A DNA stretch of 64,000 nt, taken from contig JBBDWQ010000026.1 of NCBI GenBank assembly GCA_040902805.1, positions 4,392-68,391 on the forward strand, in the 5' to 3' direction. The DNA is from Acidimicrobiales bacterium. GTDB taxonomy: Bacteria > Actinomycetota > Acidimicrobiia > Acidimicrobiales > VFJN01. A program made the translations under genes and the position numbers. The notes under the pieces are model-generated. The model saw only the letters and a program-made list of their open reading frames with translations. It did not search any database and was not told the DNA's origin. Of the stretch, positions 39,032-43,700 are shown one piece after another (position 1 is the first letter of the stretch; every line of letters begins with the position of its first letter).

Positions 39032-39823
39032 TCAGGCGACGATGTCGATCGGCGTGCCCAGGGGGATCACGTCGAGCCTCAGAAGATCCTCGATGTGCAT
39101 GCGGATGCACCCGTTGGAGATCTTGGTCCCGGTGGTTCCGATGCGGGCATCCGAGCTGGCCGAGATAGGACCGTGGATCGCGGTTACGGCGTCGCCGCTT
39201 CCTTGCCAGCTCCAGATGTCCTCGGAGTGGCCGCTGGTGTCGAGCACGATCGGTCCGTAGCCGTGCGGGCCGGGCTTCGAGAGCACAGCGATGAAAAAGC
39301 TTCCTGTCGGGGTACGCGTGCTGTCCTTGCCGATGCCCACGGGAGCGCTGAAGAGCTCGTAGCCGTCCTTGTAGACGTAGAGCCTGGTCTCGCCGAGGCG
39401 GAGCACGATGCGGTATGCGGTGCTCGTGATCGCCACCTCCGAGCGGCGGACCCAACCGATCGACCCGTTGGGGCGCTCCGGTCGCATCACCAGCAACCAC
39501 TCGCCGCTCTCCTGGAGGATGGGCATGGTCACCGGACGCTCATACCACCTACCTACCGTGCCGATGTCCTGTCCACCCGGTGTTGCATAGGCCCGGATCA
39601 GGCCGTCAGGGGTGGCGAGCTTCGTCGTGACTGGCACCTCAGGTGGCTGGGTCGTGGTGGTCGTCGGCGGGGGGACGGTCACGACTGGGATCGCGGCGGC
39701 TGGTTCGCCGCTGTCCTTGACGAAGAGCACGATCGAGCCGGCGACGAGGAGGACGGCCGAGGCCATGCTGAGGACCCACAGCATCTGCGGTGGTGTCGTG
39801 ATCGCCTCTCGCCCGTGGTCCAC
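39032..39823 (-). CDS. L,D-transpeptidase (YkuD domain), membrane-anchored
   Basis: TM + Pro/Thr linker; TPTGSF, AIHG...SNGCIRM; start uncertain (39823 or 39784). Confidence 0.88.
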   Translation of the reverse strand: MDHGREAITTPPQMLWVLSMASAVLLVAGSIVLFVKDSGEPAAAIPVVTVPPPTTTTTQPPEVPVTTKLATPDGLIRAYATPGGQDIGTVGRWYERPVTMPILQESGEWLLVMRPERPNGSIGWVRRSEVAITSTAYRIVLRLGETRLYVYKDGYELFSAPVGIGKDSTRTPTGSFFIAVLSKPGPHGYGPIVLDTSGHSEDIWSWQGSGDAVTAIHGPISASSDARIGTTGTKISNGCIRMHIEDLLRLDVIPLGTPIDIVA

Positions 39824-39885
39824 CCCTTGATGGAACCACATCCGGATGCGTCAAGTGAGTGCGCCACACCCGTTTGGGTAGCCAG

Positions 39886-39903
39886 TAACGTAATAGTACG
39901 TTA
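39886..39903. promoter_or_regulatory. Perfect AT-rich palindrome TAACGTA-ATAG-TACGTTA over the cyclase start (probable PadR operator)
   Basis: 7-4-7 inverted repeat ending on the A of ATG 39903. Confidence 0.7.
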
Positions 39904-40622
39904 TGGTGCTCGGCGTGGGGACGAAGCTCGGAACTGAGGTGCTGCTCGCGCTGCTCGATGTCGGCGGCGGCGGTCTCGGTGGCACCGAGGTGCAGGATCG
40001 CCTGGCCGAGGTGGGCAAGAAGCCAGGCGCCGACGAGTTGCTCGTGGCCCTCTTGCGTCTTGAGGGCGCGGGCCAGGTGACGGTGCAGCGTGGCGATCGG
40101 ATGACCTTTGCCCTCACCGCGGCCGGTCGAGACCGTGCCTACGAGCTCGGGGGTGGCCAGCCGGTGCACCTCCAGCTGCTCATGGCGGACCTCGTCGGCT
40201 ACGTGTCGTTCACCTCCACCCATGGCGATGTCGCTGGGCGCGACGCCGCTGGTGCTTTGTACGAGTCGGCCTCCGATGCGGTGCGTCGCGGCGGCGGCGA
40301 GGTCGTGAAGGTCATGGGCGACGGATTTCTGGCCTGGCTGCCACCAGCCACCGACCCCGTACCTGTGGTGGCCGAGGTGGCCGCCGGCTGTGCGCATCCG
40401 TCGGGCGAGCCATGGCGACTGCGGGCGGGAAGCCACATCGGCTACCCGATCCGGCATCGCAACGACCTGTTCGGTAACGATGTGAACCTCGTGTCGCGCC
40501 TGTGCGCGGCGGCTGCGCCGGGGCAGCTCGTGCGATCATCCGGCGGTGATGGCGATCCCGAGCACCTTGACGTGCGCGGCCTCGACGCACCGGTACCAGT
40601 CTGGCGGGTGACAGTCCGGTGA
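39903..40622 (+). CDS. PadR-like winged helix + class III adenylyl cyclase fusion
   Basis: N-term LLRLEGAGQV...FALTAAGR wHTH; C-term MADLVG, VKVMGDG, NDLFGNDVNLVSRL. Confidence 0.85.
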   Translation: MVLGVGTKLGTEVLLALLDVGGGGLGGTEVQDRLAEVGKKPGADELLVALLRLEGAGQVTVQRGDRMTFALTAAGRDRAYELGGGQPVHLQLLMADLVGYVSFTSTHGDVAGRDAAGALYESASDAVRRGGGEVVKVMGDGFLAWLPPATDPVPVVAEVAAGCAHPSGEPWRLRAGSHIGYPIRHRNDLFGNDVNLVSRLCAAAAPGQLVRSSGGDGDPEHLDVRGLDAPVPVWRVTVR

Positions 40623-41077
40623 CCCGTCTCTTTGGACGTGGCGAGCTGAAGCAGGCGTTGCTGCATGTGGTCGTCGAGGAGGGTCCGACCAACGGCTACT
40701 CGATCATGCAGGCCCTCGCTGACCGCATCGGTGGCTCGTGGAAGCCCAGTCCCGGCGCGATCTATCCCGCTTTGCTCGCGCTGGAGGACGACGGCTTCGT
40801 CAAGGGCCAAGACCACGACGGGGCTCGTCGCTACGAAGCGACCGCGAAGGGTCGGACGGCGGTGGCACGTGAGCCGGATGTCCTCGCCGTGGTCGCCGGT
40901 CGCGCTGCCACCGCCCCCGCGCCCGCGATCACCGTGGCGTCCGTCCTCGATCGACTGGCGACCAGCGCCCCGCACCGCGACCTGCAGATCGACACCAACA
41001 AGACCAATCGACTCGAGCGGGCGTTCCGGCCCGTGCTCGACGAGATCAATCGACTGACTGCCGAGGAGGCACCCTGA
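40619..41077 (+). CDS. PadR family transcriptional regulator
   Basis: NGYSIM, WKPSPGAIYPAL..LE.DG, YEATAKG. Confidence 0.92.
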   Translation: MTRLFGRGELKQALLHVVVEEGPTNGYSIMQALADRIGGSWKPSPGAIYPALLALEDDGFVKGQDHDGARRYEATAKGRTAVAREPDVLAVVAGRAATAPAPAITVASVLDRLATSAPHRDLQIDTNKTNRLERAFRPVLDEINRLTAEEAP

Positions 41078-41364
41078 TGGACGACTTCGCGCTCGCCGCG
41101 TTCCGCGAACGAGAGGCCCGCCAGATCCTGAAACGCCGGGCGTTCTACGTGCACGCCGCGGTGTACGTGGCTGTGCAGATCGCTCTCGTGGTGATCTGGG
41201 CGCTCGCGGGTGGTGGCCATCCATGGTTCCTGTACGCACTCATCGGTTGGGGCATCGGTCTCGTCGCCCACGGCGCCACCGCGTTCTTGATGTCACACCC
41301 CGACGACATTGTCCTGCAGCGCGAGCAACGCCGCGCCGCACGATCGGGAAACCCGCCCACCTAG
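41077..41364 (+). CDS. 2TM domain protein
   Basis: FYVHAAVY...PWF...GWGIGLVAH pattern typical of the 2TM family. Confidence 0.85.
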   Translation: MDDFALAAFREREARQILKRRAFYVHAAVYVAVQIALVVIWALAGGGHPWFLYALIGWGIGLVAHGATAFLMSHPDDIVLQREQRRAARSGNPPT

Positions 41365-41855
41365 AACGTCCAGCGGGTAGGACTGCCTGTGAAGTCGTCC
41401 TCTGTCAGACCGAACACCACCTCCGGCGTGATCCGGATGGTGGCATTGACCTCGGGGTCGAGGAAGTTGGGCTCGTAGCTGGTGCCGTACTTTCCGTTCA
41501 TCGCCTCCAGGAAGGTCGTGATCAGGTCGGGTTCCCGGATGATCTCGGCCTCGCCTTCCACCACCACCGGTTCGAGCGCGTCATCGGTTGTGATCGAGCA
41601 ACGCCCGTCCTTCGCGATGTTGCGGGCCTTGCGCGAGCTCAGTGCACTGCTCGACCAGAGCGCGCCGTCCCGCCACACGGCCCACACGGGCATGATGTGG
41701 GGGCGTCCATCGCTGCAGGTCGTCGCCAGCCAGTAGTCGTGGCTGTGTTCGAGGCGCTCATTGGCCCAGGTCCAGGGCAGGAGGCCAGTGCCCTCGTCGA
41801 AGGGCAGGATCCCGTACCCAGGCATGTGCGGCCGGGAGGCCGTCGGTTGCCTCAC
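41361..41855 (-). CDS. Pyridoxamine 5'-phosphate oxidase-like split barrel protein
   Basis: YWLATT..DGRPH..PVW, SRKARNI, PTRW. Confidence 0.85.
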   Translation of the reverse strand: MRQPTASRPHMPGYGILPFDEGTGLLPWTWANERLEHSHDYWLATTCSDGRPHIMPVWAVWRDGALWSSSALSSRKARNIAKDGRCSITTDDALEPVVVEGEAEIIREPDLITTFLEAMNGKYGTSYEPNFLDPEVNATIRITPEVVFGLTEDDFTGSPTRWTF

Positions 41856-41925
41856 CTCTCCATCCTGCACCCTCTCGCGTGCAGTGGCGAGGGTCGTGCT
41901 GCGATGGTGCGCTTGGTTGTCCAGA

Positions 41926-41943
41926 ACTAGAACGTGTTCTAGT
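41926..41943. promoter_or_regulatory. KstR-type operator, copy 4
   Basis: ACTAGAACGTGTTCTAGT overlapping TAGTCT -10 of leaderless deacylase gene. Confidence 0.88.
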
Positions 41944-41951
41944 CTCGGGCG

Positions 41952-43700
41952 ATGGCCACCTTCGATCTCGTGATCATCAACGGCATCGTCGTCGACGGCA
42001 CGGGCCTGCCCCGTCGGCGCGCCGACATCGGTGTCCGGGATGGCCGGATCGCGGCAATCGGATTCATCGACGCCAGCGACGGCACGCGAGTGATCGATGC
42101 GAAGGGGATGGTGGTGGCCCCTGGCATCGTCGATCCGCACACCCACTACGACCCCCAGCTCACCTTCGAGCCGTACGGCACGTCGAGCTGCTACCACGGC
42201 GTCACCACGGTGGTCACCGGCAACTGCGGGTTCTCGGTGGCGCCCCTCAAGCCCGGTGACGCGCCGTGGCTGATCCAGCTCTTTGCCCGTGTGGAGGGCA
42301 TGGACGCTTCCGCGCTCGAGGGCATCCCCGTTGACGGGTTCGAGACCTTTCCTGAGTTCCTCGCGTCGATGCGTGGCCAGATCGGCATCAACGCCGCCTT
42401 CTATGTGGGCCACTGCGCGCTGCGGCGATACGTCATGGGCGATGCGGCCCAGGAGCGTGAGGCGACGTCCGACGAGGTCGACCAGATGGTCGACCTCGTT
42501 CGTGATGCCATGGAGGCAGGCGCCGCTGGGTTCTCGTCGACGCACTCACCAACACACTTCGACTCTGCCGATCGTCCGGTGCCGTCGCGGCTCTCCAGCC
42601 TGGACGAGCTCAAGGCGCTCGCAGCGGCGGCGGGTCATGCCGGTGGTGGTTCGCTGGCCTACCTGCCCGGATCGGCGGTCGGGGGTATCACTCCCGACGA
42701 CGAGGCGCTGCTCATCGAGATGTCCCTCCTGTCGCGCATGCCAGTGATCATCCAAGGTCTCGGCGCTCGCTCCAAGGTCGATGCCCCCACCGCGGGGTGG
42801 GACAACGCCAAACGCTTCGTCGACGAAGCCACCGAGCAAGGTGCAGCCGTGTACTCGATGGCGATGTCGAAGCCGTTCAACCGCACCTTCGATCTGGCGG
42901 CCGGTACGAAGCTGTATGAGGGAGCGCTGGCGCTGAACCGCCTCTTCACCGAGGCGGGCACCGTCGCGGAGCGGATGGCGCTCGTCGCTGACCCTGCCTT
43001 CCGTGACGCGGCGCGAGACTCGGTCGAGAACCCCAACCGCGATCCCTCCGCCGGTCCGACGTTGCCGCCCCCAGCCTGGACTGATCTGCAGGTCAACAAG
43101 GTGAGCAAGCCGGAGAACGAGAAGCTCATCGGCCGCTCGCTCGTAGACATCGCCGCCGAGCGCGGCGTGCATCCCACCGACGCGTTCCTCGACATCGCGG
43201 CGTCAGAGGATCTCACCGTCGAGTTCGTATGGCGCACCGAGAACCCTGAGTGGATCGACGGCACGCGCATCGCACAGGAGGACCCGCACATGATCGTGGG
43301 CACCTCTGACGGCGGCGCCCATCTGGACCGCGATGACGGCGCCGAAGCGCACTCCTGGTTCCTGCAGCACTGGGTGCGGGAGTGGAAGGGCTTCACGCTC
43401 GAAGAGGGCGTCCGCCAGATAACGGCGATTCCCGCCGCCCTCTGTGGCTTCACCGACCGAGGCGTGCTTCTCGTCGGCAACGCCGCCGACATCATGATCT
43501 TCGATCCCGACACCATCGGCCCCGACCAGAAGGTCCTGGCCCATGACTTCCCCAACGGCGCGCCGCGCTGGACGTCCAAACCCCGTGGCATGCGCGCCAC
43601 CATCGTCAACGGAGTGCCGATCGTGATCGACGGAGAGCTGCAAGCCGACGCCGGCCTACCTGGTCAGGTGCTCAGCCCCCAGAGGGTGGTGTCCGCATGA
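41952..43700 (+). CDS. N-acyl-D-amino acid deacylase family amidohydrolase
   Basis: [34 protein letters not shown]. Confidence 0.9.

Follow-up and report, generated by a model that had tools for sequence, protein, structure and literature searches.

Why should a class III adenylyl cyclase carry a PadR-like winged helix at its N-terminus, and why should it be encoded directly ahead of an intact PadR-family repressor and a small two-helix membrane protein? The question is raised by a locus of an Acidimicrobiales bacterium (VFJN01; assembly GCA_040902805.1), located in a window of 64,000 nt, the whole stretch of DNA that was analysed (contig JBBDWQ010000026.1, positions 4,392-68,391, forward strand). 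An initial annotation had read the locus as an autoregulated module in which cyclase dimerisation is tied to PadR-type dimerisation or to DNA binding. Its three open reading frames are co-directional and overlap as then described, by GTGA at 40619-40622 and by TGATG at 41075-41079; in window coordinates, with gene 1 residues counted from the GTG at 39915, the genes and their predicted domains are:

39915-40622, + strand: gene 1, 235 amino acids, degenerate PadR-type winged helix plus compact class III adenylyl cyclase domain
39915-40151, + strand: degenerate winged helix of gene 1, residues 1-79
40170-40619, + strand: cyclase domain of gene 1, with D92 (40188), K132 (40308), D136 (40320), D184 (40464), N191 (40485), R195 (40497) and R221 (40575)
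40619-41077, + strand: gene 2, intact PadR-family repressor, 152 amino acids, with SPGAIYP and a C-terminal helical extension
41077-41364, + strand: gene 3, 2TM protein, 95 amino acids, with a conserved N-terminal helix

By predicted fold and by residues, gene 1 is a class III adenylyl cyclase. Its best match was Ma1120 both in sequence-profile comparison (E 3e-16) and in a Foldseek search with the predicted structure (E 1e-10; mean pLDDT 90 and pTM 0.70, from a 26-sequence alignment), and the model aligned with CyaC over 157 residues (VIA Z 18.5, rmsd 2.4). The metal-binding Asp, ATP-specifying Lys/Asp and transition-state Asn/Arg residues noted at the outset are all present: D92, K132, D136, D184, N191 and R195 align with the Ma1120 sequence and are invariant in 96/96 aligned homologues, down to 30% identity. 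Of the three Pfam models first suggested for this operon, those of genes 2 and 3 scored above cut-off, whereas the cyclase model PF00211 fell below it on gene 1 (17.5 bits against 21.9, E 0.003); two relatives pass narrowly. Judged from its intact residues, the gene 1 cyclase is likely active and would produce cAMP as a homodimer. In genome G000, nine ORFs match the cyclase profile, and the genome also has one Crp and four cNMP-binding proteins; one of these cyclases (C47) adjoins a cNMP-binding ORF.

The N-terminus of gene 1 is a PadR-type winged helix by modelled fold and by ancestry, in agreement with the original reading. Residues 3-79 of the model show the winged-helix element order H-H-H-E-E-H, and residues 1-69 match Zalpha and other small domains (VIA Z 10.8), which we take to be winged helices. 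The gene 1 family aligns with its cognate PadR family in hhalign (95.9% probability, E 6e-9, 59 columns), and the relative P0137 matches PF03551 (E 5e-4). The copy is degenerate in a specific way: LLxLE, the wing Arg59 and LTxxG are kept, whereas three features that hardly vary in any PadR group have disappeared, namely SPGxxYP, the Tyr of alpha2 and the second Arg of the wing, and the tip of the recognition helix is free to vary. By this loss of the DNA-reading motif, the fused winged helix is likely to be DNA-blind.

The two remaining genes are what they had been taken for. Gene 2 is an intact PadR (PF03551, 59.5 bits against a cut-off of 27, E 3e-16) that carries SPGxxYP, a motif invariant in 46 rows of the alignment, and gene 3 is a 2TM protein (PF13239, E 4e-17) in whose N-terminal helix F4, R10, E11 and A14 are invariant among 47 PadR-linked copies. 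A natural PadR-2TM fusion is represented by one cluster of two sequences (P0124/P0276) and may be a deletion product; longer 2TM fusions accounted for two matches among 296 candidates, none of them joining a cyclase to 2TM.

Since a simple sigma-70 consensus scan returned neither promoter nor terminator (a TAGCCA -35 is absent from its list), the promoter was inferred by comparison of relatives, with the following elements upstream of gene 1:

39855-39867, + strand: remnant of a Crp-type box, GTG-N5-GCCAC, one base short of the GTG-N6-GNCAC that is intact in relatives
39879-39884, + strand: likely -35 hexamer TAGCCA, 17 nt from the -10 hexamer, by comparison with distant relatives
39886-39903, no strand: operator palindrome TAACGTA-ATAG-TACGTTA, which occupies the promoter spacer and shares its last two bases with the -10 hexamer
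39902-39907, + strand: likely -10 hexamer, TATGGT; promoter probably leaderless, by comparison of 33 promoters

A TAnnnT motif beginning at the last two bases of the operator is found in 25/33 related promoters, and the start codon lies 6-7 nt past the -10 hexamer in 27/33. The ATG at 39903 sits inside the hexamer and is present in just 11/33 promoters, so that gene 1 likely starts at GTG 39915, from a probably leaderless promoter. The palindrome is as perfect as first described (TAACGTA-N4-TACGTTA); its overlap, however, is with the likely -10 box and not with the likely start codon. In distant relatives the -35 hexamer, 17 nt upstream, reads TTGACG, TTGACT, TTGTCA or TTGCCA, often accompanied by a second operator.

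No second copy of the palindrome occurs in the window, even with three mismatches allowed (7 of 100 shuffles reach one). In genome G000 the operator core occurs once exactly, not at all with one mismatch and five times with two, where composition predicts 17, and a wider regulon was rejected on this count; with a single copy of the operator per genome, PadR would probably control its own operon only. The exact core is found in 16/16 related loci that carry the gene 1 N-terminus. As a marker of the module, the exact core was rejected: it matches in 9/401 genomes, five times at this operon and four times without a module match nearby. The same promoter and operator directly precede PadR in cyclase-less operons (L130, L135), and the operator, unchanged where gene 1 is lacking, co-occurs with PadR and disappears with PadR; this points, at the level of sequence comparison, to PadR as the likely operator binder. 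The autoregulated character of the module is supported, whereas a cyclase coupled to DNA, as entertained initially, is not favoured, given the lost DNA-reading motif and the promoter that drives PadR directly in the absence of a cyclase gene. The operator differs from the canonical PadR site ATGT-N8-ACAT as given in the accessible text of the Listeria study (PMC4517056). In several cyclase-less loci (L134, L135, L156, L161, L164) about 40-60 nt separate the operator from the PadR gene downstream, and a possible short leader ORF takes the place of gene 1.

Upstream of the -35 hexamer, the box GTG-N6-GNCAC occurs in 12/33 cyclase promoters (shuffles: mean 0.26, maximum 3), a count that kinship inflates. 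It is centred mostly at -54.5 (three families), else at -53.5, -55.5 or -43.5, positions that are not classical for Crp; the copies at -43.5, those of L005 and L122, run into the stop codon of the upstream gene. The remaining 21/33 promoters, including that of the window, do not carry it, nor does any of 14 cyclase-less promoters under a looser pattern. Relatedness among the loci may account for this split between promoters with and without a cyclase gene. The box is the footprinted Streptomyces Crp consensus, as given in the accessible part of that report (PMC3520106), and the M. tuberculosis Crp consensus appears similar in the portion available (PMC2844151). The genome encodes a Crp. From these sequence matches, Crp-cAMP may feed back on the promoter in relatives, as a lineage-limited trait, and probably not in this genome; a regulator other than Crp is possible. 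Beside the broken box lies a divergent L,D-transpeptidase gene (YkuD, PF03734; window 39032-39841, - strand). In L021, L022 and L024 the gene lies on the other side of the operon and converges on it from downstream, which indicates relocation, and the remaining related loci that were inspected showed no copy; on these grounds it was rejected as a member of the module.

Homologues of gene 1 of similar length (158 proteins among 7828 candidates, with 20 representatives scoring below 1e-30) come from Acidimicrobiales, Microthrixaceae, Acidimicrobiaceae and Iamia, and their occurrence is patchy: within the family 15/80 genomes carry the gene, all of them from a single genus, and within the order 12/401. 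Among 31 related loci, 19 were examined, 16 with the gene 1 N-terminus and three with the cyclase only. The conserved neighbourhood expected of a module was found: 15 of the 16 loci with the N-terminus show the order cyclase-PadR-2TM (one contig ends in gene 1, and one locus is frameshifted), and the three cyclase-only loci lack PadR, 2TM and operator. Beyond the module, no neighbour family recurred across lineages in the loci examined. In L012 and L035, which belong to one genome, gene 1 and PadR are apparently frameshifted, as is gene 1 in L015; assembly error and decay are both possible.

The core unit is PadR+2TM, which had gone unrecognised in the initial annotation, as had the fusion of the degenerate winged helix to a second partner, the Sensor membrane domain. 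Among 68 distinct PadR+2TM pairs, 31 have a winged helix-cyclase gene upstream (28 in clade 1, three in clade 2), 12 are followed by a gene for a PF13796 Sensor protein, 14 lack both kinds of partner and 11 are cut by contig ends; none has both, which may reflect kinship. The pairs came from searches seeded with the genes of the window. The Sensor proteins have four helices and end in a degenerate winged helix. All ten Sensor tails examined score best against the clade-1 PadR profile (over clade 2 and generic PadR), all three heads of the clade-2 (type D) cyclases against the clade-2 profile, and 16/22 window-type heads, by small margins, against clade 1. The degenerate copies all lack SPGxxYP, and the C-terminal half of helix 3 follows the form of their own PadR clade. 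A helix-3 Leu, its exposure deduced from periodicity and not from coordinates, is kept in 85% of clade-1 PadRs, 97% of window-type winged helices and 60% of the Sensor type, where 84% of generic PadRs have Gln.

The type D cyclases lack the transition-state Asn, and a search for their range returned just two matches. Joining the two cyclase fusions into one clade was rejected (AU p=3.2e-5) in a 40-row cyclase tree of nine window-type, three type D and 28 background rows, the last drawn from a larger tree of 96 rows; each type formed a starred group. As the two fusions use different cyclase lineages, the fusion appears to have been re-invented; a copy of the PadR winged helix likely arose and lost its DNA recognition on two or more occasions, and probably on three.

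Several minor features accompany these variants. Sensor-type promoters (L055, L057, L093-L095 and others) have an operator with a 3-nt centre, CGTA-N3-TACG, in two copies, the second of which touches the ATG of PadR; the PadR recognition helix in these operons is the same as in those with a 4-nt centre. In L168 (about 850-1100, - strand), a second, truncated Sensor-winged-helix tail lies near an intact Sensor-type operon and a transposase-like sequence. A standalone cNMP-binding protein (PF00027, E 9e-14; L106:1877-2272, + strand) is encoded just after a cyclase-less clade-2 PadR+2TM pair, and a similar ORF occurs in L109.

The loss of PadR from related loci bears on the question of which protein partners the cyclase. 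Within one family, G431 and G583 carry the full operon and G615 carries it apparently split over contigs, while in G474 and G512 the cyclase is followed by 2TM (47 and 105 bases between them) with neither a PadR remnant nor an operator at the locus. Both genomes are drafts, with completeness of 94% and 93%; no clade-1 PadR was found in G512, which has one 2TM, whereas G474 encodes another 2TM together with a PadR at a different site, from where they could act in trans. The PadR-less cyclases keep all six catalytic and specificity residues and are 60% identical, which makes a single loss of PadR probable; their 2TM proteins share 75% identity, and in each of them Leu replaces Arg10, a residue invariant elsewhere. 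Since cyclase and 2TM stay adjacent in G474 and G512 without PadR or operator, the comparison favours 2TM rather than PadR as the cyclase partner; no other observation bears on the point as directly. Convergent on one PadR-less pair is a metallophosphoesterase gene (L231:2540-3580, - strand), whose product weakly matches models of cAMP phosphodiesterases (E 1e-5, well short of the cut-off).

The reading that we prefer, and to which we give an even chance, is that 2TM docks PadR-type winged helices at the membrane, and so would both release repression and tether the cyclase through its motif-lacking PadR copy. PadR likely represses its own promoter through the operator. The conserved N-terminal helix of 2TM would bind the winged helix of PadR and, with docking at the membrane, would pull PadR off the DNA; the degenerate copy would be a docking tag for the same site, docking would concentrate the cyclase domains and thereby set dimer formation and cAMP output, and tagged proteins would compete with PadR for 2TM. 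We hold these steps with moderate confidence. The likeliest stimulus is a membrane-level cue, since 2TM has almost no outside loop. Docking draws support from the PadR-2TM fusion and from the Sensor domain, which elsewhere is mostly fused to HAAS, a predicted partner of PadR (78% of a 390-member cluster); both point to 2TM as the partner. A more comprehensive version, in which PadR+2TM is a membrane anti-repressor dyad whose DNA-blind tags were recruited three times (by cyclases twice, by Sensor once), with Crp-cAMP feedback, is put forward tentatively, as somewhat short of an even chance.

Among the alternatives, the one that survives best, although unlikely, is that the fused winged helix acts inside the cyclase, in homodimerisation or autoinhibition and perhaps by sensing a small ligand in the manner of PadRs, and that PadR and 2TM are only co-regulated. 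Helix 1 of the window-type winged helix is more hydrophobic than that of PadR, with Leu in place of the PadR Lys in both cyclase fusions, and Arg59 is invariant, features that also fit such an internal role; the linker to the cyclase is short, and the winged helix is conserved nearly as strongly as the cyclase (mean column identity 0.68 vs 0.74). An internal role would leave unexplained, however, the degenerate copies on the C-terminus of Sensor proteins and the retention of 2TM beside the cyclase after the loss of PadR.

Pairing of the fused winged helix with PadR, as a heterodimer or dominant-negative form that would tie cyclase dimerisation to the repressor, was part of the original proposal and now appears improbable. 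The domain does derive from the cognate PadR, the two genes overlap by GTGA, and gene 1 precedes PadR in 15/15 complete loci. In PadR-type dimers, on the other hand, the dimer surface lies in the C-terminal helices; these are absent from the gene 1 copy, Sensor-type copies mostly stop at the wing, and cyclase plus 2TM persist at two loci without PadR.

There is a small chance that 2TM is merely a repressed output, like LftS under LftR, with a small-molecule inducer that binds PadR and with co-regulated passengers as the accessory genes: 14/68 pairs are without a third gene, and the LftS phenotypes, in the accessible text, are read as derepression effects independent of LftR (PMC4517056). Such a scheme offers no reason why PadR copies were repeatedly fused to two cyclase lineages and a Sensor domain, and only inside such operons. 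Residual DNA binding by the fused winged helix, which would make the gene 1 product a cyclase and transcription factor in one, like the mycobacterial CHD+LuxR proteins, is very improbable: the fold is intact, a wing Arg is invariant and 'PG' is kept in helix 3 of two relatives, yet SPGxxYP is gone together with the alpha2 Tyr and the other wing Arg, the tip varies, and the operator tracks PadR, unchanged without gene 1.

With 2TM docking as the preferred reading, the closest parallel is the dyad of HAAS and a PadR-like winged helix, which has been proposed as an alternative to two-component signalling and is itself a prediction (Ravi et al., bioRxiv 10.1101/2020.09.24.301986, as far as its accessible text goes). 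In both cases a standalone PadR lies beside a membrane-linked partner, and the Sensor PF13796 domain occurs with HAAS and in the type B (Sensor) operons described here. The partner in the present module, in contrast, is PF13239 2TM: a Pfam scan of gene 3 to E 0.1 returned just 2TM and a weak DUF2530 match and no HAAS (DUF1700, DUF1048 or PF22564), and the 2TM alignment contains no GxP motif of the three-helix kind. The accessible part of the dyad's description mentions no cyclase or Sensor domain joined to a degenerate copy of PadR. By its sequence features the module would work like the predicted dyad but is not a member, as it lacks the domain that defines it.

Other comparisons cover parts of the module. 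Ma1120 and related actinobacterial class III adenylyl cyclases (PDB 4wp8/4wp9; PMC4215837, available in part) share the ATP-specifying Lys/Asp pair with gene 1, whereas the gene 1 family keeps the Asn missing in Ma1120, is more compact and begins with a PadR-type winged helix. In Listeria monocytogenes, LftR-LftS combines a PadR and a small partner gene, functionally linked, in one operon; according to the accessible text, LftS is a DUF1048 protein, no cyclase is present and LftR controls a separate transporter (PMC4517056), in contrast to the one operator per genome found here. The mycobacterial proteins Rv0386, Rv1358 and Rv2488c fuse a cyclase domain (CHD) to a helix-turn-helix domain, which in the portion of the report available is of LuxR type (PMC3466318); the present module has instead a PadR winged helix without the DNA-reading motif, a separate PadR and 2TM. 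The Pycsar system (PycC + PycTM) likewise places a cyclase of class III fold beside a two-helix membrane protein, and gene 1 gave a weak PADLOC match to PycC (E 9e-5). An assignment to Pycsar was rejected: the Lys/Asp pair is of the ATP type, and genes 2 and 3 carry no cNMP-binding domain or PADLOC effector match. The present module also differs in its repressor and operator, and no defence-island context was seen in the loci examined.

The searched open-access literature contained nothing relevant on the combination of PadR, class III adenylyl cyclase and 2TM, nor on PF13239 or a transmembrane anti-repressor of PadR, consistent with the earlier statement that no characterised equivalent was known; the module is real, conserved and built from known parts, and apparently undescribed. 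If the docking reading is true, it would supply a first testable function for the common, uncharacterised 2TM domain (PF13239), a new mode of class III cyclase regulation through a repressor-mimic tag, and a case of transcription-factor domains recycled more than once as protein-docking modules. Its reach is limited by its patchy distribution (the 12/401 order-level genomes above) in uncultured taxa. The unit is small (three genes and one operator in 1.5 kb) and could be rebuilt in a laboratory strain, where it would also probe the predicted idea that dyads of PadR and membrane proteins replace two-component systems.

Two features of the window lie just beyond the operon. A gene for a PNPOx_N protein (41361-41834, - strand) is convergent on 2TM, and a 31% identical homologue follows 2TM co-directionally in the type D locus L162. 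Further downstream, just before an amidohydrolase gene at 41952, an AT-rich inverted repeat with the core CTAGAAC-GT-GTTCTAG (41921-41944) was seen by eye; it is likely the operator of another regulator.
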